Below are positions 1,774 through 29,585 of a stretch of 64,000 nucleotides of DNA, in pieces. Location: contig JAAZXA010000068.1 of NCBI GenBank assembly GCA_014240385.1, forward strand, positions 29,090 through 93,089, written 5' to 3'. This DNA comes from Methanobacteriota archaeon (GTDB taxonomy: Archaea > Thermoplasmatota > Poseidoniia > Poseidoniales > Poseidoniaceae). The translations under genes and the position numbers were made by a program. Below the pieces are notes generated by a model that saw only the letters and a program-made list of their open reading frames with translations, was not told the DNA's origin and did no database searches. Each line of letters opens with the position of its first letter. The first letter of the stretch is position 1.

Positions 1774-1951
1774 GAGCGGTAATGATGGATCGACTTGTCA
1801 TGAAGGAGATCGCAGCGTTTAAGGGTTGCAGACTATCCGATTGTCATAGGCTTCTCGAATAGTCGAGAGCGAATCATCTTCTTGGCCCTCCTTTCCTTGA
1901 CTTAATATCCTGCATCTTACCCAGCTACTAATTACTGAGATTACTCGCTTT

Positions 1952-1975
1952 GGTGTCGTCCAAGGATTGGACACC
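1952..1975. repeat. conserved hairpin element GGTGYCGTCCAAGGATWGGACACC, copy A
   Basis: 6-bp perfect stem GTCCAA/TTGGAC, loop GGA, extended arms; 4 copies in window; followed 30-45 nt later by start-less motif variant CTGTGAGCGG (2003). Confidence 0.7.
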
Positions 1976-2013
1976 TATTGCTTCAATCCGTTCATATTCG
2001 CTGTGAGCGGTGT

Positions 2014-2382
2014 TCAGATGTAGTCATCTGAACCTTCTTCTCTGATGCCCCATCGACCAACTTCAATCTTAATTGAAGGTAGGTAATGTTCATGGCAATT
2101 CTGTATCTCGAATGCAAGCATTCCATCGGGTTCGGAATCATAAGCACCATATTTGCGCCAGACAGACAATAATGCTCGCATTTGTGTCTGTAGGCTCTTT
2201 GCAAGAAGTATTGCATTCTCTGTGTCGATATCATATCCCAAGTTGGTGGTTGCCTCGCTGTAGGTGTCCTTCGCCATGATGGTGAAAGATTCACTCAACA
2301 TTGCTCCTACTGTTTCACAATCCATGCTTGCAGTATACAGTTGCCATGTTTGGGCATCTAGTTTACACTTGTAGTGTTTCAT
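2014..2382 (-). CDS. hypothetical protein, 122 aa
   Basis: motif start 2380-2382; matches track ORF. Confidence 0.6.
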   Translation of the reverse strand: MKHYKCKLDAQTWQLYTASMDCETVGAMLSESFTIMAKDTYSEATTNLGYDIDTENAILLAKSLQTQMRALLSVWRKYGAYDSEPDGMLAFEIQNCHEHYLPSIKIEVGRWGIREEGSDDYI

Positions 2383-2393
2383 GAGCGGTGTTG

Positions 2394-2900
2394 TTATGGT
2401 CCTTCCACATCAACTGTGTCGTTCCAAGTGCAACTGGTAATGTGGTCCCATTCAACTCTTTCAGCGTCTTCACCATCAACATTCCAGGTATGCTCCGTTA
2501 GAGCATTTCTGAAATCGTAGGATGCATACGATAGAGCGTTGTAAGCTTCTTCGGTAGCATCGCTGTTGGCTTTCACGCCTTTGGCGTTCGCATCTCCACT
2601 GCAGTACAGGCGACTTAACGCCCTGAATAGTAAGATTTCCAACGGTGATGGTGTCCAACTCATTGCTCGTTGGATCTCTTCTTCTATCTCTAACTCTGCT
2701 TCGTTGCGGCTGTGCGGTGAGCCTGTTTCGTTGTGGGCGACATGCAGTTGCCAGTCGTTGAGCGCCTCTAGCGCATCAGCGGGTCTATCTTTTTCTCCTA
2801 AGATGTCGCTTAATCTGTTCAAGGCCTCAGTCAAACTTGGAATCGTATGATTCGCAAGATGTTGTCCTGCCCTTGTGTTTAACCAATTTCTATTAGTCAT
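2394..2900 (-). CDS. hypothetical protein, 168 aa
   Basis: motif start 2898-2900 (..HMKPLM TNRNW.. in track ORF 2394..2957). Confidence 0.6.
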   Translation of the reverse strand: MTNRNWLNTRAGQHLANHTIPSLTEALNRLSDILGEKDRPADALEALNDWQLHVAHNETGSPHSRNEAELEIEEEIQRAMSWTPSPLEILLFRALSRLYCSGDANAKGVKANSDATEEAYNALSYASYDFRNALTEHTWNVDGEDAERVEWDHITSCTWNDTVDVEGP

Positions 2901-2908
2901 GAGCGGTT

Positions 2909-3856
2909 TCATGTGGGTCCATTGGATTCTCCGTATGCGCCACTTGGTAGAGTCCATCCTCCCCTGGAACGAATCAATTGTCTTTCTTCAATCCATGCCT
3001 CGACGAGGTATGTGACGCCTTCGTATGGTGTTCCTTTCTCTACCAATTCTCGGACACTCACGCCTTGCTTGATTGTAAAACCGAATTCTTCTTCGTATTT
3101 CGCAATCTTCTCCACCATTGCTGGATAGAGTTCGGCGGCTGATGCCCATTGATTCGCATTTCCGAATATGCAGGTAATGCATGACAGTCTGCCCCATCCT
3201 AGCCAGTATGCTGGATGAGCCATGATTCTGTGTTTTTCCATGATTTCCCACACTTGTTTTTCTGTCCAATCGTGAATTGGCCTCCAATGATGCACCGTTC
3301 TCAATTTTCCATGACAACGGTGATTCTCGAAGGTGTTGTAGTTGGATCGTGATTTGCTTTCTCCTGCTCTCTCACCAGTCACAACAAGGGTCTTCTTGCC
3401 CTTGAATCGTTCTTGGTTGTTGATTGCTGCGCTCATCACATCGATTTTCAAATAGGCACTGCACCATCTTACCCGCAGATCTGCGGAGACTTGTGGAAAC
3501 TTGCGCCTTGTACCATCAGGGCCTTTACCCCCTGATGAATCGATTGTTCCGTCTGGGTTCTCCCAGAACACCTTGCCTGTCGGGCTGTTATCTCGTAGCA
3601 TCTCTTGCTCGAATCCGCCATCTCTCCAACTGAAGTAGATGGGAACATTGAATTCCTTTGCGAATTCCCGACAGTAATCTTCTGTTATCGGCCAATCCAT
3701 GAATGGATCGCTTCCTGGCGCACCATCAATGAGATGGTGCCACAGTTCTATTTTCTCTTTGTCAACACCGTTGTCTAGCAGGTCAAGGAAACAAGCTGTT
3801 GAGTCCTTTCCTCCGCTAAAGGCAACGATGATGTAATCGTATTCATTTAGGTTCAT
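2909..3856 (-). CDS. PP-loop ATP pyrophosphatase (PAPS reductase / DndC / QueC-like superfamily)
   Basis: N-terminal YIIVAFSGGKDSTACFL = SGGxDS PP-loop; motif start 3854-3856; 315 aa. Confidence 0.6.
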   Translation of the reverse strand: MNLNEYDYIIVAFSGGKDSTACFLDLLDNGVDKEKIELWHHLIDGAPGSDPFMDWPITEDYCREFAKEFNVPIYFSWRDGGFEQEMLRDNSPTGKVFWENPDGTIDSSGGKGPDGTRRKFPQVSADLRVRWCSAYLKIDVMSAAINNQERFKGKKTLVVTGERAGESKSRSNYNTFENHRCHGKLRTVHHWRPIHDWTEKQVWEIMEKHRIMAHPAYWLGWGRLSCITCIFGNANQWASAAELYPAMVEKIAKYEEEFGFTIKQGVSVRELVEKGTPYEGVTYLVEAWIEERQLIRSRGGWTLPSGAYGESNGPT

Positions 3857-3892
3857 GAGCGGTTCATTCCGACAAGGGAATTTCCTTGTTGG

Positions 3893-4126
3893 TTATTGTA
3901 GTTGTGAAACTGTTGTTACTGCGCGTTCGCCTTTAATCACCTTCTGTAAAGCATGAAGGCTGATTACAAGGGGGATGTAGGTTTGCCCATCCCCTGTTGT
4001 GTATGTTTCACAGTTTCCCATTTCGTTTACATTGATGGAGATCTTGATTGCTCCACCTTGGTTGCTTCTTCGGGCGTAGCCCACTAGCCTAGCGGGTGCC
4101 GTATCATCTTTTTCTTCAATAGACAT
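3893..4126 (-). CDS. hypothetical protein, 77 aa
   Basis: motif start 4124-4126. Confidence 0.5.
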   Translation of the reverse strand: MSIEEKDDTAPARLVGYARRSNQGGAIKISINVNEMGNCETYTTGDGQTYIPLVISLHALQKVIKGERAVTTVSQLQ

Positions 4127-4136
4127 GAGCGGTAAA

Positions 4137-4586
4137 TCACATTTCGAATTTAGTGATGCCATCATCTTCCGATAATCTCACTTTACGGCCAATCATTGTA
4201 GCCTGTTTTCGAAGTGCTTTGATTTTAGCGTGTTGTTCTAGCAGTCCTTCTCCATCTAGCATTGCTATGATTTGGAAGGCTTTTTTGTGCGAACGAATAC
4301 TATCCAGAATATCGTCAATCTTCGACAATAGTTCCCACATCTCGGGGCTTATCGTCATCTTGACTGCAGTTCTGTAATCGTCTGCACAGAATCCCTTTCC
4401 ATTAGTTTCTCTTCCTTTGACGAAGTGTCCGTGGCCGATGTGACCGGGGACTGGGAGTTTCGCAAAAATATTCTCTCTAAGGGTTGAGTCGTTTCTGCAT
4501 ATACAGAGGGGATTAGCCCTCATTCTCTCTCTCCCGCCAATACTCCAAGAAGCGGGGGAGAACTGTAGTGTAAATTCAGTTTTCAT
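4137..4586 (-). CDS. 6-pyruvoyl-tetrahydropterin synthase / QueD-like protein (putative)
   Basis: FSPASW near N-terminus (cf. FSAAH) and PGHIGHGHFVKG (cf. PTPS/QueD NGHGHNY / RLHGHSF Zn-site motif); motif start 4584-4586. Confidence 0.4.
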   Translation of the reverse strand: MKTEFTLQFSPASWSIGGRERMRANPLCICRNDSTLRENIFAKLPVPGHIGHGHFVKGRETNGKGFCADDYRTAVKMTISPEMWELLSKIDDILDSIRSHKKAFQIIAMLDGEGLLEQHAKIKALRKQATMIGRKVRLSEDDGITKFEM

Positions 4587-4597
4587 GAGCGGTCCCT

Positions 4598-4849
4598 TTA
4601 GGCTAGGGGATTTAATCCTTCTTTCCTGATTATTTCAGTCACTTGAAATTGGTGCCGGTGTTTGGTACAGGTTTCGTTAAGAAGGGGTTCCCAATGGGGT
4701 GCTAAAAGGGCGTTTTTGTTTCCTGGACATACTCCAGTATGTCCTTTGGTAATATTCTCTAATTCTTCCTCTGTTGCCCAGCCTTCTTCGGGCCAGGTGT
4801 GCTCTGCTTTACAGAACTTGCATCGGAAGATTGCTTTTATCTCTGCCAT
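4598..4849 (-). CDS. Cys-rich Zn-binding protein, 83 aa
   Basis: CKFCKAEH...CPGN; motif start 4847-4849. Confidence 0.55.
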   Translation of the reverse strand: MAEIKAIFRCKFCKAEHTWPEEGWATEEELENITKGHTGVCPGNKNALLAPHWEPLLNETCTKHRHQFQVTEIIRKEGLNPLA

Positions 4850-4856
4850 GAGCGGT

Positions 4857-5087
4857 TCAATTTGTTACTTGCCAAATTGATTCTTTCCATCGTCGGCCTC
4901 TGTCGTAACATCTCTTTGTTTCGACCTTGACGAACTCTGGGTTCTTTCCCAAGACATTGTTCAATGTTTGGATTGAGGTTCCTTCTTTGGTATTCATATT
5001 GATGTGCTCAAGTATCTCATGTGTTGAGGCATTTCCTTTCTCTTGCACATACTCTATTGCCATTTTCTTGATTCTAATGGAGACCAT
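4857..5087 (-). CDS. hypothetical protein, 76 aa
   Basis: motif start 5085-5087 (track ORF 4857..5156 over-extended). Confidence 0.5.
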   Translation of the reverse strand: MVSIRIKKMAIEYVQEKGNASTHEILEHINMNTKEGTSIQTLNNVLGKNPEFVKVETKRCYDRGRRWKESIWQVTN

Positions 5088-5095
5088 GAGCGGTT

Positions 5096-5251
5096 CTATT
5101 CGGGCTGTAGAATTTTGTATTGTAACAGGCCCACTTTCAGGAAGTGCCTGATACAATCTGATCTAGATAACCCGTGCGTATCTGCGATTTCATCAATTTG
5201 TTTCAATTGACCTTTGCTTATTCTGAGACTCACCATCCCTTTTGTTGTCAT
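5096..5251 (-). CDS. ribbon-helix-helix (CopG/Arc-like) DNA-binding protein, 51 aa; not in ORF track
   Basis: motif start 5249-5251; MTTKGMVSLRISKGQLKQIDEIADTHGLSRSDCIRHFLKVGL shows beta-strand/helix/helix RHH pattern. Confidence 0.5.
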   Translation of the reverse strand: MTTKGMVSLRISKGQLKQIDEIADTHGLSRSDCIRHFLKVGLLQYKILQPE

Positions 5252-5260
5252 GAGCGGTGT

Positions 5261-5470
5261 TCAGGAAAAGTCTGCTCCGCAATTGTAGCATTGATCTATT
5301 CCTGTGTTTGCATGGTGGTCGCAACATTTCGGGCAGATTTCATTTTCTGCACAAGGGCAACCGTTCAAGATTCTTCGCATCTCTTTAATCCAGCAATTTA
5401 CCAAATAGCGTTGGGTTTCTGTAGTAAAGGTGTCGATGTTGTTTTCCATGTCTTCAAGTATTGTTTCCAT
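5261..5470 (-). CDS. Cys-rich protein, 69 aa
   Basis: motif start 5468-5470; CPCAENEICPKCCDHH...CYNCG. Confidence 0.5.
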   Translation of the reverse strand: METILEDMENNIDTFTTETQRYLVNCWIKEMRRILNGCPCAENEICPKCCDHHANTGIDQCYNCGADFS

Positions 5471-5478
5471 GAGCGGTT

Positions 5479-6354
5479 TCAAACTGGAACCCATAGTTTC
5501 CTGCCATTAGATGAACAGGCTCGGACTAGAGAGGCTGCAGCACTTGGAGAATTGAAGGTCACATCTCGAGTAAATCGTAAATGTTTGCCGTCTTCAATTA
5601 TTGCTCCTTTTTCAAGGAGTTCTTTTCTCCATCTTTGCTCGCTTAACCTCCATGAGTCTCGGGGTTGCTTGTTTGCTGTAGATCCACGAAATACCACGAA
5701 CTTCTCGTTGCGGTATTGGCCTGTTGCTTCAACACCATTTGTTAGTGCAAGCTTCAGCATATCGTTGTCCCAGTATTCTTCTGATAGCCAGTTTCCCTTG
5801 TTATCCATGCATAGAACCTGCTTACCGCCGGCTCCTTCCCATGGACTGTTTGAAAATACGACTGATACTGACGGCCATCTTGACGCTCCGCCCTTAACAT
5901 GTGCAGGGCCGGTGAAGTCAAGTCTCCCTTTGAAGAAAACCAAATGCGAAGCATGAGGAAAAATCCAATTATGCCACATCAGGGTTTCACAGTTGGTAGG
6001 TCGGATTAGCAAGACGACGATTTCTGCATCGCCATTCTGCACAGAATCAAATGCCTTCTTTACGAACGGTTTGATTCCGTGGCTTGTTTTGCTGGAGTAT
6101 GGCGGGTTGCACCATACTATTCCTTCCCACTTCTGTTCTAGGGAGTCCATCTCAATATCGTAGTAATTCTCGCATAGGGCGTTTTCTTCGCTTGCAGCCG
6201 CATCCAATGTGAATGGGCCGAATCTGGCATTTAGAGAATCGAATATTGCTGTCGGAGTGCGCATGTCGTTTTCATCGCTATTCTTCTGCTTTCGATTCTT
6301 ATGCCAGGAGCGAACTTCCTCTGGCGTCATTTCAATTGATATCTTTTCAGACAT
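5479..6354 (-). CDS. DNA N6-adenine methyltransferase (phage Dam-like family)
   Basis: IVWCNPPYS catalytic NPPY motif; motif start 6352-6354; 291 aa. Confidence 0.7.
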   Translation of the reverse strand: MSEKISIEMTPEEVRSWHKNRKQKNSDENDMRTPTAIFDSLNARFGPFTLDAAASEENALCENYYDIEMDSLEQKWEGIVWCNPPYSSKTSHGIKPFVKKAFDSVQNGDAEIVVLLIRPTNCETLMWHNWIFPHASHLVFFKGRLDFTGPAHVKGGASRWPSVSVVFSNSPWEGAGGKQVLCMDNKGNWLSEEYWDNDMLKLALTNGVEATGQYRNEKFVVFRGSTANKQPRDSWRLSEQRWRKELLEKGAIIEDGKHLRFTRDVTFNSPSAAASLVRACSSNGRKLWVPV

Positions 6355-6361
6355 GAGCGGT

Positions 6362-6652
6362 TCAAGGAGGGGAAGGCCATGTTGGGCAATGTTCTCTCAA
6401 CATTGCTGCCAATATCTCAGTAGCCTCTGAAGCTACTTCTCGGCTAATCCCTCGTTCAGTCCATTGGTCGTAATTGCCTTCTAGATTTTCGTAGTCCAGA
6501 AGTTTCAAGCATTCGTATGCTGCAATTGCAACGCTTTGATCATATTTGCATGTACCCTGTAATCCACAGCATGGACAACAGACGCACATTCCTTCACCAC
6601 CATTCCATGTGGCTGCTCCGCAAGTGCAGGGGTATGTTTTCTTTTTTGTCAT
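6362..6652 (-). CDS. Cys-rich protein, 96 aa
   Basis: motif start 6650-6652; CTCGAATWNGGEGMCVCCPCCGLQGTC. Confidence 0.5.
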   Translation of the reverse strand: MTKKKTYPCTCGAATWNGGEGMCVCCPCCGLQGTCKYDQSVAIAAYECLKLLDYENLEGNYDQWTERGISREVASEATEILAAMLREHCPTWPSPP

Positions 6653-6766
6653 GAGCGGTGTCCTCGATTATGAGGATGATTTCGGTTATTTCTCCGTTGT
6701 TGTCTCTCTTTACATCATGTGGTGTGCAAAGTCCGTATTTGGGGTGCATGTAATGCATGAGCGGTT

Positions 6767-7237
6767 TCATTCATCGAATGAAAGTTTGTCAAAACCGAAG
6801 TTCATCGTGTAGTAGTAACCATCATAAATCTCACCATATCCCTCGATGACAACTATGTCACCAATGGACATTGATGTGTGTCCGACTTCGTTTTCACTCA
6901 TCCAGTTCTGTCCGAATCTTGGATTATCTGGTTCGAGCGGTATTGCGTTGTCGAACTCGTCATAGCAGTTAATCCTGCCTTTGCCGTCCCAATTACGATA
7001 TTCTTCTGCAAGTGGGTTTGTTGCGTATGAGTTCATTCTTCGGAAGATGGCTTCAAGGGTGATTTTTGGTTCGTTATCCTGTGAAGGAACCAAGCACAAG
7101 CCGTCTTCCTCAAGGTTGAATACGACCCAACTGGGCAACTCAGCCCATTGTTCTTCGATTTCTTGCTTTGTTTGTAGTTTCCTGTCTCGGAACATAAATT
7201 CACAGTTCCTCTTTCCGTACAAGATCTTAATCTTCAT
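6767..7237 (-). CDS. hypothetical protein, 156 aa
   Basis: motif start 7235-7237. Confidence 0.55.
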   Translation of the reverse strand: MKIKILYGKRNCEFMFRDRKLQTKQEIEEQWAELPSWVVFNLEEDGLCLVPSQDNEPKITLEAIFRRMNSYATNPLAEEYRNWDGKGRINCYDEFDNAIPLEPDNPRFGQNWMSENEVGHTSMSIGDIVVIEGYGEIYDGYYYTMNFGFDKLSFDE

Positions 7238-7246
7238 GAGCGGTAT

Positions 7247-8152
7247 TCAGTCTCGGTAATTCGGGAACTTGTAGTACATAAGCCACCATGTTCCTCTAAT
7301 CTCATCGCCACAATTACTGCAGCATTGAGCCTTGCCGATACTTTTCTTCGTTTGTGTTCCGTAACAGTAATCGATTGGTTCTCCTGCTTCGCTACGGAAT
7401 AGTTTCTCGATAACTGACTTTGGAATATCATTTTCAGCCCATTTGAACACAAGTGTTCCATTGGTTTTCAATAATCTCCATAGTTCTCGGAATCCCTTAG
7501 CGAGGTTTTCTTGCCAATCATGTCCTAGATACCCATACTTCATTGTGATGAATCCTGTGCCTTTCTTTTTCACATGGGGTGGATCCCATACGATGTGATT
7601 GAAGGTCTCGTCATCAAATTGAGGTAAGTAGGTGAAGTCCCCCAGAATATCTGGTTTGCATTCCCATCCGGGTTGGGATGGTATAGGCACACCGTCTGGG
7701 TCTTTTCGAGGCATCATTACTCCTTGAGAGCCTTCGCCTTTGACTTCTATCCTTTGATCTAGGAACAATACATTCGGATTGTTTTTGTGGTTTTTGTGCC
7801 AAATCGACCTTGAACCTGCTGTTGCATCGAGGATCAATAATTCATTGGCAGTTGGTATAATGGTTGAGTTGATGGTGATTCTCCACCATCCTCTGTCTAA
7901 ACCATCTTTTTCCACATCTCCTTTTCCTTTCAAGGAACCAAGTGCTGTTCTTACTCGGTGTTTCCATTCGGGTTGATTAGTTCCACATGTGCAGCATTGG
8001 CTGCAGAGATAATCGTCATCGCATAGGTGAGGGAAAGAATCCTTCACATATTCGTAAATGACGGTTATTTTGTGGATTCCCTCTGGAACCACTTTCGTTA
8101 TTCCACCGTCCATTAGTTCCTTTTGCAATTTTCTGTGTTGCAATTGTTGCAT
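7247..8152 (-). CDS. DNA methyltransferase (N6A/N4C class) with Cys cluster
   Basis: IVWDPPHV (DPPY-type motif IV); motif start 8150-8152 (..EEPLM QQLQH.. in track ORF 7247..8209); 301 aa. Confidence 0.55.
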   Translation of the reverse strand: MQQLQHRKLQKELMDGGITKVVPEGIHKITVIYEYVKDSFPHLCDDDYLCSQCCTCGTNQPEWKHRVRTALGSLKGKGDVEKDGLDRGWWRITINSTIIPTANELLILDATAGSRSIWHKNHKNNPNVLFLDQRIEVKGEGSQGVMMPRKDPDGVPIPSQPGWECKPDILGDFTYLPQFDDETFNHIVWDPPHVKKKGTGFITMKYGYLGHDWQENLAKGFRELWRLLKTNGTLVFKWAENDIPKSVIEKLFRSEAGEPIDYCYGTQTKKSIGKAQCCSNCGDEIRGTWWLMYYKFPNYRD

Positions 8153-8162
8153 GAGCGGTTCC

Positions 8163-9002
8163 TCAGTTCCATCGCATTGCAAACCTGATAAGGTACTTGC
8201 GTTTTGCACATGAGGTCCTTATTGTAACAAACATAGTTCCATATCCGTTAGGATGGCCGTCGTTGACGGTTAGGTCTGTTGGACAATAGATTTCGATTCG
8301 GGCATTGTTCAATACCCAATTCGGCATTTTTGCTAATTGATCTAAGCGGTAAGCTTCTAGCGTCCCCGACATCTTAATTCCCCCTGGGTTATCAATGGGA
8401 ATAATGACGGTGTTGCTTTCCGATTCGCCTGCGGTTCTGCTTAATTTGAATTCGTTCTCATCAATTGCAAATTGTGTTTGCTGGAATGATTGTGCCAATG
8501 ATTTCAATTTCATCTTCAAGTTTTTGTCTTGGATAGTGAAATTCCTATTAGGCCCCCTCATCCTCTCGAGTTTGGGGTTCATCAAGGATTGAGATGAAAA
8601 ATCGTTGCGGGAATTTTTCCATTTGGAGTTGTTTCCCCAACGCATGGTGAATTCACCATCTTCATCTTCTAATTCAACGGTTGATTTGCCTGCAATTGAG
8701 GCTCCACTCATTCCTTTGAATGTTTTCCATTGCGTCTTGGAGAAATTTCTTCCAACTTCTCCATTGGCAATTTCGTGATTAGAATAGTCAATCCGGTTCA
8801 AACTGAGAAGTGGCATTATCTCTTCATTGCCTATACTCCACCATTCATGCTCCTGTGAATTGGGGTCAATTACAGGTGCCGTTGATGAAAGGAGGAGGCC
8901 TTGTTCACAAAATCCGATTCTAATCGAATCCTCGTTTCCAATTAAGCGATTGGCTATGCCAATTATCTGTCTATTTGCTGTAGCATCTAGTGTTGCTTTC
9001 AT
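8163..9002 (-). CDS. hypothetical protein, 279 aa
   Basis: motif start 9000-9002. Confidence 0.55.
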   Translation of the reverse strand: MKATLDATANRQIIGIANRLIGNEDSIRIGFCEQGLLLSSTAPVIDPNSQEHEWWSIGNEEIMPLLSLNRIDYSNHEIANGEVGRNFSKTQWKTFKGMSGASIAGKSTVELEDEDGEFTMRWGNNSKWKNSRNDFSSQSLMNPKLERMRGPNRNFTIQDKNLKMKLKSLAQSFQQTQFAIDENEFKLSRTAGESESNTVIIPIDNPGGIKMSGTLEAYRLDQLAKMPNWVLNNARIEIYCPTDLTVNDGHPNGYGTMFVTIRTSCAKRKYLIRFAMRWN

Positions 9003-9008
9003 GAGCGG

Positions 9009-9107
9009 TCAAATGATTTTTCCACATTTCTGACAAGACTGGGGGTGAACCCCTGAATGTCTAGGACATGGGTTTTCGCAAATACAATCTTCTGATTCAT
9101 CAGTCAT
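9009..9107 (-). CDS. Cys-rich micro-protein, 32 aa (not in ORF track)
   Basis: motif start 9105-9107; MTDESEDCICENPCPRHSGVHPQSCQKCGKII; stop abuts next motif. Confidence 0.3.
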   Translation of the reverse strand: MTDESEDCICENPCPRHSGVHPQSCQKCGKII

Positions 9108-9133
9108 GAGCGGTTTAGGATTACGAGTGTATT

Positions 9134-9376: not shown

Positions 9377-9384
9377 GAGCGGTC

Positions 9385-9951: not shown

Positions 9952-9958
9952 GAGCGGT

Positions 9959-10409: not shown

Positions 10410-10422
10410 GAGCGGTTTCTTT

Positions 10423-10593: not shown

Positions 10594-10600
10594 GAGCGGT

Positions 10601-10807: not shown

Positions 10808-10814
10808 GAGCGGT

Positions 10815-20035: not shown

Positions 20036-20045
20036 GAGCGGTGAT

Positions 20046-21271: not shown

Positions 21272-21280
21272 GAGCGGTGT

Positions 21281-21832: not shown

Positions 21833-21842
21833 GAGCGGTGTC

Positions 21843-22385: not shown

Positions 22386-22400
22386 GAGCGGTATATGGTT

Positions 22401-22904
22401 TCATTCTGTGTTTGGTTCCCAATCGTCGAAGGTAACCTTTGTCGGTTGGCTTTCGCTCCATGATTCACCATGAACCTCAATCTTGATATCTTCAATCTTG
22501 ATATGTTCTAGGTTTGATTGGACGCACCAAACACCGTGGACTCCCATGTTCTCCGTGATACTGACTCTCCACAATTTATTGTGTAGTTTCACAATGTATT
22601 CGTAGGATTCGTGTATTGAATCTTCAACTGGGGGGAATCTGTCTGTGCTTGTGAAGCTTAGACTGCTTTCGCAGTTCCATGCGTTGTGTAGCACAAGGAA
22701 CTCTTCTTCACCGATATTATCGGATGATGAGAAGGTCCAAGGTATGAGTTCATCATATTCTTCTCCTGCCCACTCCCATTCTGGGTCATTTTTTTCATAT
22801 GGGTTGGGGCATCCCTCATACCATATCTTTCCTTCATGTCGGTAGTGGGTTCTTCCCGGGTAGTATTCGTTCAGAAGTTCTTCTTCTGCTGGTGTATATT
22901 CCAT
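22401..22904 (-). CDS. hypothetical protein, 167 aa
   Basis: motif start 22902-22904, inside 45-bp repeat. Confidence 0.55.
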   Translation of the reverse strand: MEYTPAEEELLNEYYPGRTHYRHEGKIWYEGCPNPYEKNDPEWEWAGEEYDELIPWTFSSSDNIGEEEFLVLHNAWNCESSLSFTSTDRFPPVEDSIHESYEYIVKLHNKLWRVSITENMGVHGVWCVQSNLEHIKIEDIKIEVHGESWSESQPTKVTFDDWEPNTE

Positions 22905-22945
22905 GAGCGGTGTTATTTGGATCAGTTATTCTAGATCTTCGGTGG
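22901..22945. repeat. 45-bp gene-junction repeat, copy 1 (CCATGAGCGGTGTTATTTGGATCAGTTATTCTAGATCTTCGGTGG)
   Basis: near-identical to 27796-27840 (one indel, one substitution); spans start motif of downstream gene, intergenic spacer and last codons of upstream gene. Confidence 0.75.
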
Positions 22946-23137
22946 TTCCAGCCCGTACACTACATGAGTAATCCTGATTTGGATTTCTCCTTCACAGTTG
23001 TTGCAGAAGTAGTAGTAGGTGTCGTGTTCGACGCTCTCCGTGTCTAGATCGCCGTCATCTTTGCACCAGGGGCATTCTCCGAATCCTTGCGGATCCAGTT
23101 CTTCTCCCACTTTGATGCTAATCTCTTTTGATGTCAT
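22931..23137 (-). CDS. Zn-ribbon protein, 68 aa
   Basis: CPWCKDDG...CNNCEGE; motif start 23135-23137. Confidence 0.55.
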   Translation of the reverse strand: MTSKEISIKVGEELDPQGFGECPWCKDDGDLDTESVEHDTYYYFCNNCEGEIQIRITHVVYGLEPPKI

Positions 23138-23160
23138 GAGCGGTGTTTTGAGTCTAAACT

Positions 23161-23349
23161 CTAAACAATGTAGGTGCCTAGGGCTACTGCTGCAGTAAGT
23201 ACAACGAAATTTATCGCTACCATGAGGGCGAGAAACGATCCACTTCGGGCTGTCTTCTTTTCCTCAATGTACTCATTCAATGCTGTTGTGTTTCCCTTCA
23301 CGATTAGGTTGAAGGTTTCTGTTGGCATACAAACTGTTTTGTCAGTCAT
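23161..23349 (-). CDS. small membrane protein, 62 aa
   Basis: motif start 23347-23349 (..RLPLM TDKTV..); C-terminal TM helix. Confidence 0.5.
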   Translation of the reverse strand: MTDKTVCMPTETFNLIVKGNTTALNEYIEEKKTARSGSFLALMVAINFVVLTAAVALGTYIV

Positions 23350-23366
23350 GAGCGGTAGTCGTCCCG

Positions 23367-24494
23367 TCACTTGAGTTCGGTTACAGCGTGAAGGCTGACC
23401 GTGTTCAAATTTGTAGTTTCATGGTACAATATTAGTTGCTTCGATTTGAAGCCTAACCATAATTGTCCCTTTCTGTCTGTAGGGGCGATTAAATCATTCA
23501 GCGTGTCTGTACACACGGACAACGATGAAACCTTCTTTCTGATGGCAACTTCGTCGGTGTCGAATTTCAATCTGAATACTTCGCCATCCTTCTTGCTGCC
23601 ATTGTAGGCTACCATTGTAAGTTCTCCGTTTTGTGTTCCCTCGAAGTAAACCCTCGAGGTCAAGGACGCTGCTGTTTTCACATGTCCAGCAAATTCTTTC
23701 AAATCAAGGATTTCAACATTGTAATCCTCTTCGTCAAATGTTGGAATTTCAACCCTATAGCCCTTATTGGCGTAGGTTGTCGAGTAAGGTTCATATTTGA
23801 CCTTCTCTGATTCCATCGAAAAAGTGTATTCGATTCTGTCGCCGGTTTCCTCTTTGAGGTGGAATGTCAATTCCTTTGAGTTCCTGGCAGCTTCAGCAAT
23901 TTTCTTGTTGCTTGATTCTGCGCCGGTACTTAACCGGAATGGCATGTTTTCAATAACAACGGGTGTGCTATCCTCTGCCGCACATGTTAATCTCCACTCA
24001 AGTGCTGATGTGGATCTGTAGTGCGATGTCTTGGATTGCTTCCCAATGCCATTGAAGTCCATTATTGAATCTGCGGCGTATTCTCCTGCGGATAATTTCT
24101 TATCAATGATTGTGAATCGTTTAACCGATTCGGAATCGAGTGTTATTGCGAATGATTTGGTTGAATTAGGGGTCATCCCGGCACTATCCCTACGGGCGGC
24201 GGCGGGGTGTTTTGGTCTATATTCAACCGGTTCTTCGTCATCCTCTTCATCCTCTTCATCATCTTCTTCATAGATGTCTGAGTCATTGATTTGTTCCCAT
24301 TCTTCATCCGTGATTAATATTGAGTCATCTTCTTCATGTTCATCATCTTCTTCGGATAAGGAGTCATTAACTCCTGTGAATGATTCTGGATCTGTGTCCT
24401 GTTCTGTCTCTGATTCACTTGCGCCCAGTTTCTCTTCCGATACTCCTAGTGATTCGGCAAGTAATCTTCGGGTTGTTTCCCAATCTAGAGTCAT
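23367..24494 (-). CDS. hypothetical protein with acidic N-terminal region, 375 aa
   Basis: motif start 24492-24494 (..DTVPLM TLDWETT..); DE-rich low-complexity stretch. Confidence 0.55.
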   Translation of the reverse strand: MTLDWETTRRLLAESLGVSEEKLGASESETEQDTDPESFTGVNDSLSEEDDEHEEDDSILITDEEWEQINDSDIYEEDDEEDEEDDEEPVEYRPKHPAAARRDSAGMTPNSTKSFAITLDSESVKRFTIIDKKLSAGEYAADSIMDFNGIGKQSKTSHYRSTSALEWRLTCAAEDSTPVVIENMPFRLSTGAESSNKKIAEAARNSKELTFHLKEETGDRIEYTFSMESEKVKYEPYSTTYANKGYRVEIPTFDEEDYNVEILDLKEFAGHVKTAASLTSRVYFEGTQNGELTMVAYNGSKKDGEVFRLKFDTDEVAIRKKVSSLSVCTDTLNDLIAPTDRKGQLWLGFKSKQLILYHETTNLNTVSLHAVTELK

Positions 24495-24705
24495 GAGCGG
24501 TACAGTATCTTTCCCCCGGTTGCGCAGGACATATTTCCAATTCAACCGTGTCGGTATCAAATCTGTGTTCTCTGCCACAATGTCCACATTCCAAACGCCA
24601 GTCTACATCGTAGATTTCAGCTCCCAGTATTCTTGGGTGTTTGATTTTGGATAATGGCACCCATATTGTAGGAAGTCTTGCTTGCAGGATATCTAATTTG
24701 TCCAT
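24415..24705 (-). CDS. Cys-containing protein, 96 aa
   Basis: motif start 24703-24705; CGHCGREH...C. Confidence 0.45.
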   Translation of the reverse strand: MDKLDILQARLPTIWVPLSKIKHPRILGAEIYDVDWRLECGHCGREHRFDTDTVELEICPAQPGERYCTAHDSRLGNNPKITCRITRSIGRETGRK

Positions 24706-24717
24706 GAGCGGTGCGTG

Positions 24718-25596
24718 TTAAACGCGTCTTTTGATAGCCTCATTAACTGACTTCAACCTTTCAAGGAAAGTGTCGAGGTTTTCGATTGTGTCGTCAAATT
24801 CGTTCACAATCTCGATAATTTTCCTCTCCATCTTTTTCTCCTTTACGAAGATGCTTACCATTTCAGGGGGGTCTTCACTTTGCTGGACTTGTGCTGGCAC
24901 AGGTCCTGTGGATTTCTTTCCCTTTTCTTTGCGGTGTTCAGTAAACGGTTCTATTCCGTCTTCATCTACCCAAATGGTTTCCTTCTCGGTATGCAGGATA
25001 TCCGTTTCAATGAGTCCTTCGTACATCGGCTTTTCATCGTCGTATTCTTCGATTAACTCATTTTGTAGTTCGGATTCTAATACATCCACGAAGTTTGAAT
25101 CTAATTCACGAACTTCTGTGGTTTCTTCGGTTTCCTCTGCATCTGGAACGGGTTCGGAGCAATCGAAATTACTTGAGATGTAGTCTAGCATTGCTTGTTT
25201 GGGGTCTTTCCCCTCAGCAATTGCTTTTCCTGCTACATCGAAAATATTCTCTGAATTCTCTAGTACCTGTTCGTTGTCCTTGACCCATTCCAATGCCAAT
25301 ACTTCTTGCATTAATTCTACAATGTCGGCTGGAGGGTCTTCGGGCTCTTCGGTAGTAGGTTCCTCTTCGGTTTCAGTCTCAACCTTGACTTTTGGTTCTG
25401 AAAACTTGGCTGTAAGGTAGGACGCCATTTCAAATCTCCTCTTCTGGGATGAATCGATGTCGTTAAACTGTCCTCCATCGATTGCATTGTTGAGGTAATC
25501 TTCGGCGGCTACCATGTGCCGGTCTCTCCACCCTTCGTCTGTTAGGTCGGTTAATTTGTTTATCACATAGTTCATATCATCTATGATCTCTTGCAT
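24718..25596 (-). CDS. highly acidic protein, 292 aa
   Basis: motif start 25594-25596; ETEEEPTTEEPEDPPAD. Confidence 0.55.
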   Translation of the reverse strand: MQEIIDDMNYVINKLTDLTDEGWRDRHMVAAEDYLNNAIDGGQFNDIDSSQKRRFEMASYLTAKFSEPKVKVETETEEEPTTEEPEDPPADIVELMQEVLALEWVKDNEQVLENSENIFDVAGKAIAEGKDPKQAMLDYISSNFDCSEPVPDAEETEETTEVRELDSNFVDVLESELQNELIEEYDDEKPMYEGLIETDILHTEKETIWVDEDGIEPFTEHRKEKGKKSTGPVPAQVQQSEDPPEMVSIFVKEKKMERKIIEIVNEFDDTIENLDTFLERLKSVNEAIKRRV

Positions 25597-25606
25597 GAGC
25601 GGTTCA

Positions 25607-25813
25607 TTATTCCATTATCCTCACGAAACTTCCGAATGGTTTGCGGCATTTAGCGTGAATCCAAAGGTTCTTGGTGATGCTCAATTGGCTTCCGGGCTTA
25701 TTCTTCATTGAAATTGCCCTTTCTCCTTTTGTCATCAATTCTCCACACCATACGCAAATTTGTTGTTCTGTTTGTGAGGTTCTCCATACAATTCTGTCGT
25801 GTATTTGGGTCAT
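25607..25813 (-). CDS. Zn-binding protein, 68 aa
   Basis: motif start 25811-25813 (..HRQPLM TQIHDR..); CVWCGE...HAKC. Confidence 0.5.
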   Translation of the reverse strand: MTQIHDRIVWRTSQTEQQICVWCGELMTKGERAISMKNKPGSQLSITKNLWIHAKCRKPFGSFVRIME

Positions 25814-25823
25814 GAGCGGTTGT

Positions 25824-26096
25824 CTATGGCAATGGTGCAACCATTTGAGCCATAGGTGGGCTTGGCGGAACAATCTCAATTAATCCTTCAATGCCTGTTG
25901 CAAGGGCTAAGAGGACCTTTCGGTGGATGGTTAAGCGGTGGATTAATTCGTCCAATACATCTGCGCCTTCCAACTCTGCTATGTTTTCCGCCAGACCATT
26001 AGTTGGATTCCACCTGTCTTGGTGCTTTTCCATTAGGTCTGCTTCGTATTTCACTAGGTCAATTCCTAGTAATTCGTGTTGATATTCTTCTAACAT
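25824..26096 (-). CDS. hypothetical protein, 90 aa
   Basis: motif start 26094-26096. Confidence 0.5.
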   Translation of the reverse strand: MLEEYQHELLGIDLVKYEADLMEKHQDRWNPTNGLAENIAELEGADVLDELIHRLTIHRKVLLALATGIEGLIEIVPPSPPMAQMVAPLP

Positions 26097-26274
26097 GAGC
26101 GGTTCTTTTCATTCCAGCGGGGGATGTTTCGTCACCTTGAACTTGAGCCGACCCCCATCACTTGATTCTTGCCTACAAGCAGTGGGGAGGTATCTTTCAG
26201 TGGTGGGCGAGTATCGAGCCCCTTGTTTCAAAGAACCCGGTTATATCATTGGTTGTCTCCTTTCGAGTTTCTTC

Positions 26275-26298
26275 GGTGTCGTCCAAGGATTGGACACC
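26275..26298. repeat. conserved hairpin element, copy C
   Basis: GGTGTCGTCCAAGGATTGGACACC; followed by CCGTGAGCGG (26327-26336) directly after stop of gene 26343..26711. Confidence 0.7.
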
Positions 26299-26342
26299 TA
26301 CTTTCTCTACTTTGGACTGCAATAAGTCCCCGTGAGCGGTAT

Positions 26343-26711
26343 TCACAAATCTCTGTCCAGCAGTAAGGACCTTAATTCACTCCAACAGTCTTGGATTGCT
26401 CCAGGGTCGGTATGTCCTTCAATTGGCCTTACTTCTGCTAAGATTGTGCTGATTAGGTCTCTTACTCGTTCATAATCTACAGTTTTGATTTCATTGTATG
26501 CATCGGCAATCTCATTTTGAATCGACTCATCGATAAACGATGATGTTGCGTCCATAGCGAGCGTTTGCAATATTATCTCTGCTGCTGATTCGGGTAAAAT
26601 CCAAATCGTTTTGGCGTGTCTTTTGCCGAGGTCGATGTAATCGACTCCTTCCTCTAGTTCATCTAGTCTTTTGGCAAATTCTTTTCCATCTACAAGATCT
26701 TCTCTTGGCAT
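26343..26711 (-). CDS. hypothetical protein, 122 aa
   Basis: motif start 26709-26711 (catgagcggatt; ..CNPLM PREDLV..). Confidence 0.5.
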   Translation of the reverse strand: MPREDLVDGKEFAKRLDELEEGVDYIDLGKRHAKTIWILPESAAEIILQTLAMDATSSFIDESIQNEIADAYNEIKTVDYERVRDLISTILAEVRPIEGHTDPGAIQDCWSELRSLLLDRDL

Positions 26712-26753
26712 GAGCGGATTACACAAGTTAGGTGTTTCAAACTGGGGCATCGT

Positions 26754-27338
26754 TCATCCTCCACGGATGCACTCCAGTTCGCACCTTTCCCATGCTTTCT
26801 CTGAGATTCCGAGTTCCATAGCCTTCTTTCGGCTCTTTTCCTCATCCATCTCCCATTCATCTTCGTTGTGCCATACGATGTAATCTGACATGTTTCCGTC
26901 TTCTACTTCTTCTCCGTTTACCCACCAACCCCAGAAATCCATGCCGGCTTCCATAAAGGAAGCATCGACTTCGAATCCGTTGTTGTATAGGTGTTCATAG
27001 ATTGGGAAGGTAGGACTCCATGCTGAATCAAATCTGATTTCCAGTATGTTTTCGTCTGGGTCTAAATGGCAATGAGTCCGTCCGTAGTTGTTTTCGTCAA
27101 CTTCTGCGGGTATGGCCCATTTGGTTCCCCAATTGTTCACATTCCAATTTCTCCACCAAGTCGGGTCGCTATGAAGCTCCTGCTGTGATGTTTCATATTC
27201 ATCACGGTAAGCAGGTGTGTCCGGCGGTGGGATTAGGAATTGGAACAATCCAGTTTCCTTTGTTGCTTTTTCTATTTCAATTAATTTCTGTCTATCATCG
27301 TGTTTGATGATGACATGGTTGTTTGTCCAATTAGGCAT
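26754..27338 (-). CDS. hypothetical protein, 194 aa
   Basis: motif start 27336-27338. Confidence 0.55.
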   Translation of the reverse strand: MPNWTNNHVIIKHDDRQKLIEIEKATKETGLFQFLIPPPDTPAYRDEYETSQQELHSDPTWWRNWNVNNWGTKWAIPAEVDENNYGRTHCHLDPDENILEIRFDSAWSPTFPIYEHLYNNGFEVDASFMEAGMDFWGWWVNGEEVEDGNMSDYIVWHNEDEWEMDEEKSRKKAMELGISEKAWERCELECIRGG

Positions 27339-27346
27339 GAGCGGTT

Positions 27347-27799
27347 CTAAATGATGAGTTCTGCAATTTTGATAATTTCATGTTGTAAATCAACTTGATT
27401 GTTGATTTCCAAGACTTCTTCCTCGTGAATTATTCGGTCAGTCTTTGCTTTGAGGGCTTGAAGGGATTGGTCTGCTAAAACCAAACCAATCTTCAAAGCC
27501 TCAACTTCTGGGAATCCATATTCCTTCAAGTAGCCTGTAATCCAAACGACACTTCGGTTGAGGTCGTGATTTAGAGAATTGCAATAAACCATATCTGAGT
27601 ATTGTTCTAGGGATAGGTTCAAAGCTTCTCTTTTTGACAGACAGACATCTTTCATGATGAGTTCACCATCAATTATGTCATCTTCCTCTGTGTGCATGAT
27701 TTTCTCATTCCAGTAATCTTGGTAGTTTTCTTCGCCTTTTTCGTGTAAGCCGATCCAAGCGCCATACCATTCATCGATTTCTCCGGTTTCGTTTTCCAT
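27347..27799 (-). CDS. hypothetical protein, 150 aa
   Basis: motif start 27797-27799, inside 45-bp repeat copy 2. Confidence 0.55.
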   Translation of the reverse strand: MENETGEIDEWYGAWIGLHEKGEENYQDYWNEKIMHTEEDDIIDGELIMKDVCLSKREALNLSLEQYSDMVYCNSLNHDLNRSVVWITGYLKEYGFPEVEALKIGLVLADQSLQALKAKTDRIIHEEEVLEINNQVDLQHEIIKIAELII

Positions 27800-27840
27800 G
27801 AGCGGTGTATTTGGATCAGTTATTCTAGATCTTCGGTTGG
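27796..27840. repeat. 45-bp gene-junction repeat, copy 2
   Basis: see 22901-22945. Confidence 0.75.
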
Positions 27841-28146
27841 TTCGATTTCTACGATGTAGATTTCGATGCCTTTGGCCTCCAACCAGTCTAATGTGTCGTC
27901 AAAACTCCGATGGTCTTGTTTGAACTCTTCTGTCAAATCAACCATCATGCCTTGCATACATTCATGTGCAATTGCATCAGAGTTGAACGACCAATCCATA
28001 TCTCTCCAACCCATTCCGAATCCAGAACCACCATCGGTCATGTATTCGTCATATTTGTTGGCTATCTCATCCATTCGTTTGCTACGGTTGCTGAAAGTCT
28101 CGATGTTTCCATCGTCCTTCCATCTGAGCATTACTCTGTATTCCAT
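27820..28146 (-). CDS. hypothetical protein, 108 aa
   Basis: motif start 28144-28146. Confidence 0.5.
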   Translation of the reverse strand: MEYRVMLRWKDDGNIETFSNRSKRMDEIANKYDEYMTDGGSGFGMGWRDMDWSFNSDAIAHECMQGMMVDLTEEFKQDHRSFDDTLDWLEAKGIEIYIVEIEPTEDLE

Positions 28147-28155
28147 GAGCGGTTT

Positions 28156-28443
28156 TTAGAACTCGTTTGTAGTTCCTGTTTTGAGTAATGTGATGATTAT
28201 CCGATTAACGGCAATCATCCTATTTGTAATCGCCTTATCGTCAAAATTCTCAAAGTAAGCCATGAGCATTTCATAGTGAGGCATGTTCCATTGATGTGTC
28301 GGTAAAATAAGTTTTTCAACTGCTTCTACATCTGTTGGTTTCAAATTGTCTGATTGTCTGAGGATAGTTGAAGGGAGTTGTCCTGTTTGGTCGTTGAAAC
28401 CCCATGTTGCTTCTAACATCTTTCTAATCCATTTATCTTCCAT
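28156..28443 (-). CDS. hypothetical protein, 95 aa
   Basis: motif start 28441-28443. Confidence 0.5.
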   Translation of the reverse strand: MEDKWIRKMLEATWGFNDQTGQLPSTILRQSDNLKPTDVEAVEKLILPTHQWNMPHYEMLMAYFENFDDKAITNRMIAVNRIIITLLKTGTTNEF

Positions 28444-28530
28444 GAGCGGTTAATCCTCTTCGTATTCTTCGAAGATGTATTCTTCTGTTTCAATGCGTAA
28501 TATCAATGTCGGCATGAGCGGCTCAAACCA

Positions 28531-28797
28531 TCAAGATGGTTTGTAGCAGTTTGATTCGTTTGTTGTTATTCTGATTGTTGAATCTGATATTGACTCGAGC
28601 AATACATCTCCATCATCCTTGACCTTAATTACTATGCAGAAATCTCCGGGCTCGATTATCTCGTCCTCGCTATTTGTTTCTGCAGCATAAAGGCTCACGA
28701 AGTCTCCGACTTCGAAGTTGTTTTGTGAAGTTGTGTAGTTCTGTTCGTATGCGTCTTCAATCAGTTTCTTTAACCGGGTTGCTACTCTTCTTCCCAT
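28531..28797 (-). CDS. hypothetical protein, 88 aa
   Basis: motif start 28795-28797. Confidence 0.5.
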   Translation of the reverse strand: MGRRVATRLKKLIEDAYEQNYTTSQNNFEVGDFVSLYAAETNSEDEIIEPGDFCIVIKVKDDGDVLLESISDSTIRITTNESNCYKPS

Positions 28798-28806
28798 GAG
28801 CGGTGT

Positions 28807-29073
28807 TCATTCTTCTTCAAGATCATCCCAGTGGATAAAATCTCTTTTCATTGTCCTTCTTTTGAATTTAGGGGTGTTTTCTACAAATGGGTCGGGTATT
28901 GTATTTGTCTCTTCTGGTTTGCCAAAAATATAGGCGAACCAGAAATACATCAATATCCCCATAAGAATTATCGTATAGGGGTCTTGCAGCCATTCGTAGA
29001 TGAGTGCGCATAGCAATCCTGTGCAAATTGCTGCTAGTGCGTTTCTTACATTCAATTCAATGTATTGTTCCAT
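28807..29073 (-). CDS. membrane protein, 88 aa
   Basis: motif start 29071-29073; two predicted TM helices. Confidence 0.55.
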   Translation of the reverse strand: MEQYIELNVRNALAAICTGLLCALIYEWLQDPYTIILMGILMYFWFAYIFGKPEETNTIPDPFVENTPKFKRRTMKRDFIHWDDLEEE

Positions 29074-29310
29074 GAGCGGTTTGTACCGGCATACTCTTGC
29101 TTAGACTGTTCGCTGGACAGTTGGCCTGTGAATCTAACTGCAACACTCCGTCTTCCCGTTTCTGTCTCCGTAGATACAATTGAGGGAAGCTGCGGGTTTG
29201 TCAATTGACTCGATGGCATCGTGGCCGAAGCCGCAGGATGCCCTAAGCAGTATCTTACCGTAGGTACTTACCCGACTCGCCAATTAGGGGTCACACCATC
29301 CATGACTGTT

Positions 29311-29334
29311 GGTGCCGTCCAAGGATTGGACACC
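29311..29334. repeat. conserved hairpin element, copy D
   Basis: GGTGCCGTCCAAGGATTGGACACC; followed by TCGTGAGCGG (29369-29378) abutting stop of gene 29379..29585. Confidence 0.7.
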
Positions 29335-29378
29335 GTAAGCGTATTGGTTCTGCCCCGGTTAGGTCTGTCGTGAGCGGT

Positions 29379-29585
29379 TTAATCATTTCTAACAAGGTTG
29401 TAGACATATTCGAATAAATCTCTTCCTTGTTCTGTGAAGCCAGATGGATCATCGTCGTTTTCAACGATGTTTCCTTCTGCATCTAGGTTGTATAGTAACT
29501 TGCGTTCAATAAGTCCTTCATCAATTAAATATTCGATTACTGAATCTCCTGCATCGCAAGCTTCTCCTATGTTGTTTTCTTCCAT
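29379..29585 (-). CDS. hypothetical acidic protein, 68 aa
   Basis: motif start 29583-29585. Confidence 0.5.
   Translation of the reverse strand: MEENNIGEACDAGDSVIEYLIDEGLIERKLLYNLDAEGNIVENDDDPSGFTEQGRDLFEYVYNLVRND

Follow-up and report, generated by a model that had tools for sequence, protein, structure and literature searches.

Four start-less hairpin units in a heptamer-punctuated gene array of a candidate marine archaeal virus

The 64,000-nt stretch analyzed here (the window) covers positions 29,090 to 93,089 of contig JAAZXA010000068.1 in GenBank assembly GCA_014240385.1. The genes of window 1-41270 are all on the minus strand and form an array in which the heptamer ACCGCTC commonly abuts the start codon. 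Four units of this array (nc1-nc4) carry the heptamer without ATG and share a 24-nt hairpin. Our favored reading, to which we give somewhat less than an even chance, is that the array is a series of heptamer-punctuated cassettes in a marine virus, probably one of archaea, and that nc1-nc4 are autonomous non-coding units within it.

Anatomy and conservation of the hairpin units

The four units have a common layout. The upstream stop codon is followed after 0-16 nt by ACCGCTC and then by ACG (three units) or ACA (one unit), and 26-37 nt further on lies the hairpin GGTGTCCWATCCTTGGACGRCACC. The 3' part of each unit is 170-230 nt of unrelated sequence that ends at an ordinary ACCGCTC-ATG gene start. 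The start-less copies are at 2002-2011 (ACA), 11380-11389, 26331-26340 and 29369-29378 (all three ACG), with stop-to-heptamer distances of 2, 16, 2 and 0 nt, respectively. The units can be aligned with one another at the heptamers and the hairpin only.

1781..2011, minus strand: nc1, heptamer 2005-2011 followed by ACA, 224-nt body up to the heptamer-ATG at 1771-1780; no consistent open reading frame (ORF), stop 2 nt before the heptamer
11152..11389, minus strand: nc2, ACCGCTC followed by ACG; orthologues in the related loci L007-L011; long-range fold in which six pairs are compensatory and the apical insert varies
26104..26340, minus strand: nc3, ACCGCTC followed by ACG
29081..29378, minus strand: nc4, ACCGCTC followed by ACG, heptamer abutting the upstream stop

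An earlier note on this DNA had reported the 24-nt hairpin in four copies at the larger intergenic gaps, and this was confirmed. The 24-mer, GGTGYCGTCCAAGGATWGGACACC in plus-strand letters, occurs exactly four times (plus-strand coordinates 1952-1975, 11333-11356, 26275-26298 and 29311-29334); the window holds no fifth copy at ≤3 mismatches, and shuffled sequences are expected to hold none. The features had been described on the strand as shown and had to be reassigned, because all of them are on the minus (coding) strand, where the 24-mer reads GGTGTCCWATCCTTGGACGRCACC. In all four units the hairpin starts 26-37 nt downstream of ACCGCTCAC[G/A] and has the same orientation. Across every copy found, 22 of the 24 positions are invariant while the unit flanks are unalignable. 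By inspection, the fold has a single 3-nt bulge, an inner helix of 3 or 6 bp and a 3-nt loop, and its conserved flanks are asymmetric (GGT / GACACC). An A/G change at hairpin position 20 gives a U-A or a U-G pair on the sense strand only.

1952..1975, minus strand: hairpin copy 1, sense GGTGTCCAATCCTTGGACGACACC
11333..11356, minus strand: hairpin copy 2, sense GGTGTCCTATCCTTGGACGGCACC; inner stem interrupted by a U-U mismatch, outer stem with a U-G pair
26275..26298, minus strand: hairpin copy 3
29311..29334, minus strand: hairpin copy 4; outer-stem U-G pair owing to the G at position 20

The units are non-coding. No consistent ORF runs over the hairpin in any frame or strand of the four units, and a protein-coding gene was also rejected on the 1- and 5-nt indels, which are out of frame, that separate the nc2 orthologues. 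A 161-codon plus-strand ORF at 11290-11775 lies antisense to the nc2 hairpin and to the whole unit headed at 11780; it is probably a chance ORF.

Orthologues of nc2 are present in five Tara contigs (L007-L011) at 71-76% identity, which is comparable to the adjacent coding units. ACG is retained in all five, at ~71% identity, and the orthologues also differ by a swapped apical stem-loop that is a UUCG hairpin in some. The RNAalifold structure of nc2 is a long irregular hairpin that begins immediately 3' of the 24-mer and ends 7 nt short of the next heptamer. In this fold 96.5% of cells are paired, and 6 pairs show double changes compared with 0-2 in slid controls and 0 of 500 shuffles, in an alignment of five sequences of which about three are distinct. 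No orthologues of nc1, nc3 or nc4 were found among the related loci, and a covariance model of the hairpin run over all related loci matched the four window copies and the nc2 orthologues and nothing else. Among the roles that the earlier note had offered, a small RNA fits best, and the nc2 fold lends it comparative support. The proposal that the hairpin units are fixed punctuation of gene modules did not hold up: the neighbors of nc2 differ among relatives because heptamer-bounded units are shuffled.

The hairpin units were compared with known classes of element. Rfam 15 searched over the whole window at gathering thresholds returned three tRNA matches only, and the nc2-nc4 regions at E ≤ 10 gave only sub-threshold noise, such as sno_ncR1 at 24.7 bits against a threshold of 94. 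No tRNA or tRNA-like gene was found in nc1-nc4 by ARAGORN or RF00005. A bulge-helix-bulge motif was rejected by inspection of the folds, which have one 3-nt bulge only, as were the alternatives of a K-turn and of a tRNA minihelix. None of the four hairpins was called as an intrinsic terminator, and the sequence 3' of them is A-rich without a T-run. The suggested attenuator, or a terminator of the usual kind, is thus not what these hairpins look like, since they lack a U/T run and true hairpin-plus-T-run terminators occur elsewhere in the array. An archaeal promoter or halovirus HF2-type repeat does not fit, because the conserved 24-37 nt contain no AT-rich block; AT-rich patches 25-45 nt downstream are not conserved between nc2 and L007-L011. 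Minus-strand sigma-70 promoter matches are absent from the four units, and their overall frequency is no higher than in shuffles.

The 24-mer, searched as an exact match with its two degenerate positions, was not found in IMG/VR or in one genome from each of 185,579 species. A clustered regularly interspaced short palindromic repeat (CRISPR), or a solitary unit of one, was rejected because no exact match turned up in these genomes or in IMG/VR and the copies are 3-15 kb apart without repeat-spacer structure. Integron attC sites were rejected because most units follow one another with only 0-5 nt and the heptamer in between, and no tyrosine recombinase was present in the proteins scanned, which did not include every ORF. 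An RNA guide directed at the heptamer was rejected because no unit pairs with ACCGCUCA better than shuffles do. The pattern ACCGCTCATG-N184-214-ACCGCTCATG has at least 119 matches in cellular genomes; those that were inspected turned out to be tandem repeats with no relation to the units, a CRISPR-like array, and pairs arising by chance. A ACCGCTCATG pair in a Poseidoniales metagenome-assembled genome is among these unrelated or chance loci, and the pattern gives no host information. The literature on these motifs, and on heptamer/start-codon motifs in archaeal viruses including magroviruses, yielded no description of them.

The heptamer array and its relatives

1..41270, minus strand: array of ~90 co-directional units headed by (A/N)CCGCTC, 82 of them by ACCGCTC joined directly to ATG

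The pattern ACCGCTCAYR has 90 matches against 0.27 expected, and 89 of the 90 are on the minus strand. ACCGCTC stands immediately 5' of ATG at 82 gene starts, and T/G/C-CCGCTC-ATG at 5 more. The earlier note had tied the position of the heptamer to the upstream stop. The gap from the previous stop to the heptamer is usually 0-5 nt, but the tie is not obligatory: about 10 genes lack a perfect ACCGCTC within 25 nt of the stop (at least 4 of these gaps begin with an NCCGCTC variant), and some heptamer-ATG genes, such as those following the hairpin units, have their nearest upstream stop >170 nt away. When bases were counted position by position over the 82 heptamer-ATG sites, stop codons were the only information upstream of -8, with no Shine-Dalgarno (SD) sequence, no TATA box or TFB recognition element (BRE), and no -10/-35 elements. 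Many genes in window 42000-64000, which is without the heptamer, have a GGAGG/GGTGAT-type SD 5-10 nt before the start. The lack of an SD in the array, when many genes outside it have one, means that array genes need another route to translation start. Strong terminator-like hairpin-plus-T-run sites with a common stem core, CCCAAC.GC/GCGGTTGGG, are present at 37463-37488 and 32681-32708 (both minus strand), and there are none in the 32 kb from 32681 to the window start.

The heptamer without a start codon is not confined to the hairpin units. Further start-less copies head the following units.

41038..41270, minus strand: start-less heptamer 41261-41270 (ACA), ~95-nt leader, tRNA-like gene 41038-41168
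32681..32726, minus strand: degenerate start-less heptamer GCCGCTCACA (32717-32726), then terminator-like hairpin and T-run 32681-32708
11390..11780, minus strand: start-less heptamer (ACG), ~80-nt leader, ORF with first Met at 11700-11702
35127..35424, minus strand: start-less heptamer (ACA), ORF ~30 nt downstream; the L147 orthologue likewise has ACA

The earlier note had proposed that the heptamer is used without a start codon, and this is supported: ACG is kept in L007-L011, and tRNA-like genes, leader-plus-ORF units and a terminator likewise stand behind start-less copies. The position it gave for the extra copy at 41261-41270 was right, but the others were 1-10 nt off and belong at 11771-11780, 32717-32726 (where the first base is G, not A) and 35415-35424. 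The units at 11780 and 35424 have a downstream ORF and hence are not non-coding units. The tRNA-like gene at 41038-41168 matches RF00005 and has 64 nt in place of the 7-nt anticodon loop. A second tRNA-like gene, in L147 at ~1170-1340 (minus strand), begins 4 nt after ACCGCTCACT; it was recognized by eye and was not called by Rfam. In both tRNA-like genes the anticodon-arm region is enlarged by an insert of ~60 nt, and the encoded CCA continues into ATG (CACCA-TG). Both were missed by ARAGORN, and a small conserved hairpin, GGCGT-N6-ACGCC, follows each.

Related loci hold start-less heptamers of several kinds. In L016, ACTGAAC-ATA is followed by a perfect hairpin and TTTTTT, and L013 has a 15-bp hairpin at the same position. 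L012 contains two tandem start-less units, at 140-402 (263 nt) and 403-702 (300 nt), which are present in L001 too; these units share a conserved box, GACAAAGTAYRAACAGATYAAGGTCTAGTTYRGAAGAAGTCYAGT, that is unlike the 24-mer and has a hairpin inside, with one compensatory pair between the copies. In the start-less units seen in the ACCGCTC lineage, position +1 is always A and +2 is C (ACG, ACA, ACT and ACC). This constant A and C after the heptamer, together with the ACG kept in five nc2 orthologues, indicates that the start-less state is under selection rather than in decay.

Homologues of a 377-aa array protein were found on Tara Oceans contigs of 116-129 kb, and the heptamer differs among these relatives by lineage. 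ACCGCTC is used by L001 and L012 (59% protein identity) and by the closer L007-L011, L017 and L147; ACTGACC is used in L004 and L014, ACTGAAC in L013 and L016, and a looser NYCGCTC in L015. One L016 protein is 82% identical to the window protein at 27338..26754 (26754-27338) and yet lies in an ACTGAAC array. A protein this similar behind a different heptamer argues that the heptamer belongs to the genome, not to the gene, which in turn implies a genome- or virus-specific reader. By blastn of the window against L007, L008, L010, L011 and L017, units are 70-92% identical, their order is scrambled, and similarity starts at the heptamers; nc2 moves among the relatives as a unit of its own. This movement of units resembles cassette shuffling.

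Gene content is compatible with a virus of archaea. A gene at 42486-43694 (plus strand), transcribed away from the array start, encodes a divergent TFB/TFIIB-like protein, an assignment based on a sub-threshold Pfam match and on Foldseek, in which the top matches of the model were all TFIIB/TFB. Relatives encode an archaeal-type RNA polymerase A''-like protein and PCNA. Genes for tRNA-Arg(GCG) and tRNA-Lys(CTT) are located at 55297-55371 and 59081-59156 (minus strand), and the GCG anticodon of tRNA-Arg is typical of archaea, not of bacteria. Weak matches to virion proteins were obtained with a 951-aa protein, and no relatives were found among GenBank phages at the DNA or protein level. The host is likely archaeal, and the element fits a marine virus like the 'magrovirus group D' that has been described for Marine Group II archaea (PMC5434244).

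A proposed unit-start signal and its rivals

The heptamer followed by A heads every kind of unit, whether protein-coding, tRNA-like, terminator or structured non-coding, which argues for a unit-start signal at the level of RNA synthesis or processing and not for a ribosome-binding context. Given its presence on coding and non-coding units, an array without SD sequences, and a following base that stays A, the simplest reading is that an RNA 5' end forms at that A. The heptamer would set this 5' end, coding units would become leaderless mRNAs (5'-AUG), and units not meant for translation would carry ACG or ACA and so avoid a 5'-terminal AUG. The four hairpin units would then be made as stable RNAs of ~230-300 nt. 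Their 5'-proximal bulged hairpin, the sole common part, may be a recognition handle whose partner is most likely a protein of the virus or the host, and the differing bodies of the four RNAs would fold on their own. Because the 24-mer is near-invariant but only moderately stable, it resembles a handle recognized by its sequence more than a hairpin with a purely structural role.

The 5' end could arise by initiation or by cleavage. In the former, a virus-specific reader, for example the TFB-like protein with or without the A''-like subunit, would recognize the heptamer. Cleavage would be in keeping with the absence of upstream promoter information and with the heptamers that directly follow the last stop codon ahead of terminators. 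In five cases an upstream ORF continues through the next heptamer, and initiation fits these better than cleavage does.

24415-24501, 12569-12691, 6594-6659, 10212-10229 and 6767-6941, minus strand: ORFs reading through the next heptamer

The same five ORFs, in which the heptamer is translated as Thr-Ala-His, are awkward for a cleavage site and are among the points that weigh against the favored reading. A 7-bp signal without an upstream element differs from the canonical archaeal promoter. Whole-unit folding energies of nc1-nc4 are no better than those of shuffles (z -0.02 to -1.2). Of the four units, only nc2 has a fold with comparative support, drawn from five sequences (about three distinct) and a structure derived from the same alignment. 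The hairpin shows no covariation, with no paired variation at any position among the copies found, and its stability is moderate (-8.4 to -9.3 kcal/mol, z -1.5 to -2.0) with competing registers. The 6-bp inner stem GTCCAA/TTGGAC, which the earlier note had called perfect, is intact in three copies but has a U-U mismatch in the 11333 copy.

The serious rival is cis-acting transcription punctuation, which we regard as possible though on balance doubtful. The 24-mer would be a DNA promoter or operator, or a nascent-RNA antiterminator or pause site resembling lambda nut boxB, that divides the terminator-free 32 kb into expression modules, and the rest of each unit would be a leader removed at the next heptamer. 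The distribution of the copies suits such a role: they are in the larger gaps only, all in the direction of transcription and at intervals of 2.7-15 kb, along a region that has no terminator-like site from 32681 to the window start. A TFB/TFIIB-like protein is encoded beside the array and an RNA polymerase A''-like subunit in relatives, other lineages have terminator-looking hairpins directly after start-less heptamers, and the conserved intergenic repeats of halovirus HF2 are proven promoters (PMC8707807). However, no AT-rich TATA/BRE occurs in the 24-mer or at a fixed distance from it, the AT-rich patches downstream of it are not shared by nc2 and the orthologous units, and there is no sigma-70-like site and no T-run. 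Punctuation in cis also leaves the conserved long-range fold of the nc2 body unexplained, and nc2 lies among different genes in relatives, so that no fixed module would be regulated.

Three other explanations fare less well. Double-stranded DNA binding sites for a dimeric protein in partition, replication or packaging, unrelated to the heptamer, would account for an inverted repeat (GTCCAA-N3-TTGGAC) of ~15 bp that is present in four dispersed copies with a strongly conserved primary sequence. This is unlikely in view of the single orientation of the four copies, their fixed distance to the start-less heptamer and their asymmetric conserved flanks (GGT / GACACC); moreover, the A/G variant breaks the dyad symmetry and keeps sense-strand pairing, and the sites are single, not paired around an AT-rich region. 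Decay of protein-coding cassettes into pseudogenes without ATG, with the 24-mer as the relic of a common coding motif, is very unlikely. The unit sizes of 231-298 nt are within the small-gene range of the array and one T-to-C change converts ATG to ACG, but the units have no common frame or peptide beyond the 24-mer and contain stops in all frames. In addition, the orthologues keep ACG and blocks of sequence at ~71% identity with indels that are not multiples of three, and 22/24 identity amid unalignable flanks is unlike decaying paralogues. The least probable explanation, to which we give almost no weight, is that the elements are solitary CRISPR-repeat mimics (RNA anti-CRISPRs) or remnants of a virus-borne mini-array. 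The 24-28-nt element is partly palindromic and dispersed, and it occurs in non-coding units within a virus region where anti-restriction-type genes, including several DNA methyltransferases, are abundant, but the 24-mer has no exact match in the 185,579 species genomes or IMG/VR and no adjacent repeat-spacer structure.

The arrangement was also compared with known systems. Halovirus HF2 has intergenic repeats of two classes (class I, 58 bp; class II, 29 bp) that are viral promoters, with a TATA box at -26 plus a BRE and transcription that starts inside the repeat (PMC8707807). The likeness lies in short, conserved, oriented repeats in a few gaps of co-directional blocks in an archaeal tailed virus, which are kept in relatives. 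The 24-mer differs in having no AT-rich box, in forming a bulged hairpin and in always following a start-less heptamer. The promoter-early stem-loops (PeSLs) of T4-type phages (Arbiol et al. 2010) are reportedly mobile regulatory cassettes that join a sigma-70 early promoter to a stem-loop; they are reported to be ~50 bp long, degenerate and upstream of an SD-led gene. They, too, are reported to be short repeated regulatory motifs that flank many small genes of a hyperplastic region and are tied to modular shuffling between related phages. The present array has an invariant 7-mer that abuts ATG and lacks a promoter consensus, and a hairpin in 4 of ~90 units.

Intercistronic RNA processing signals include the early RNase III sites of T7, mitochondrial tRNA punctuation and the yeast mitochondrial dodecamer 3'-processing site. 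There, polycistronic transcripts are cut into units at recurrent intercistronic sites, and tRNA-like genes occur in the array described here as well. Those signals, however, are structures (RNase III hairpins, tRNAs) or a 3'-end dodecamer, and none is a lineage-specific 7-mer fused to a start codon. Initiator-type promoters fused to start codons include the poxvirus late TAAATG and the yeast mitochondrial nonanucleotide promoter. They are alike in being very short, near-invariant motifs at the first transcribed base that are used by a virus- or organelle-specific polymerase and may overlap the ATG, and differ in having eukaryotic viral or organellar hosts and polymerases. To our knowledge, neither cassette shuffling nor non-coding start-less units have been described for them.

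The lambda nut site (boxA plus boxB) likewise combines a short linear element, a spacer and a small sequence-specific hairpin, which serves as a protein handle, in non-coding RNA that heads long operons. Its boxB is 15 nt with a GNRA-like pentaloop that binds N, whereas neither a homologue nor a similar sequence occurs here, and archaea are the probable host. Integron cassettes resemble the array in being co-directional, mostly promoter-less, delimited by a 7-nt core and variable in order among relatives. Unlike the present units, each of them carries a 60-120-nt attC hairpin, and the tyrosine recombinase IntI feeds the array at attI. The units of the present array lack an attC-like element of their own, and the only recombinase gene found near it encodes a small serine recombinase (57564-58385). 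The heptamer arrays and hairpin units resemble several of the compared systems in part but show the defining features of none.

In its broadest form, the proposal would be that a private, lineage-specific 7-nt code (ACCGCTC, ACTGACC, ACTGAAC) defines the 5' ends of units in a 40-kb array of marine archaeal viruses and thereby gives leaderless mRNAs without promoters or SD sequences. The same code would head exchangeable cassettes that include tRNA-like genes and a new class of ~230-300-nt small RNAs with a common protein-binding hairpin, which would act in trans and travel between genomes. We hold this form only tentatively and think it may well be too wide. Within the sequence, it is the start-less units that argue most strongly against a translation signal in the heptamer of ~90 unit starts, which appears instead to mark unit starts in general. 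Taken with the lineage-specific heptamers and the shuffling, these units point to a grammar of gene expression and gene exchange that we have not found described for a virus or a cell. Without promoters or ribosome-binding sites, dozens of closely spaced genes appear to be expressed in an uncultured virus of archaea. The RNAs predicted from the four hairpin units would form a new family of viral RNAs, and their defined handle offers a route to the protein partner.

Other genes and repeats of the array

2909-3856, 5479-6354, 7247-8152, 15920-17191, 17199-17954 and 29593-30459, minus strand: DNA methylase- and PAPS-reductase-like genes

Pfam matches among these genes comprise two to the N6_N4 DNA methylase family (17199-17954 by a short N-terminal stretch only), one to the Dam methylase family and two that are PAPS-reductase-like. 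The candidate fourth methylase, 7247-8152, has a DPPH motif only and no Pfam methylase match. Together with WGR, DUF6915, DUF3860 and DUF4357, the methylase and PAPS-reductase genes resemble an anti-restriction or DNA-modification set.

Heptamer-less starts at 37429, 39422, 40305, 40778, 11702 and 35387 (minus strand) have C/A-rich contexts before the ATG (CCCCAC, CCCCCC, CACCACAC, CACCCCTC, CCCCCCTT and CCACCC), and this may be a second start context. A direct repeat of ~85 nt, CAACAC..ACCGAAAAAAATCCCGCTCCGCCTATTAGAGGTCGGCAATGGAGCCATGA..AACCCCNCATG, is present at 37690-37775 and 40300-40385 (minus strand) and may be a promoter or leader at the array head.

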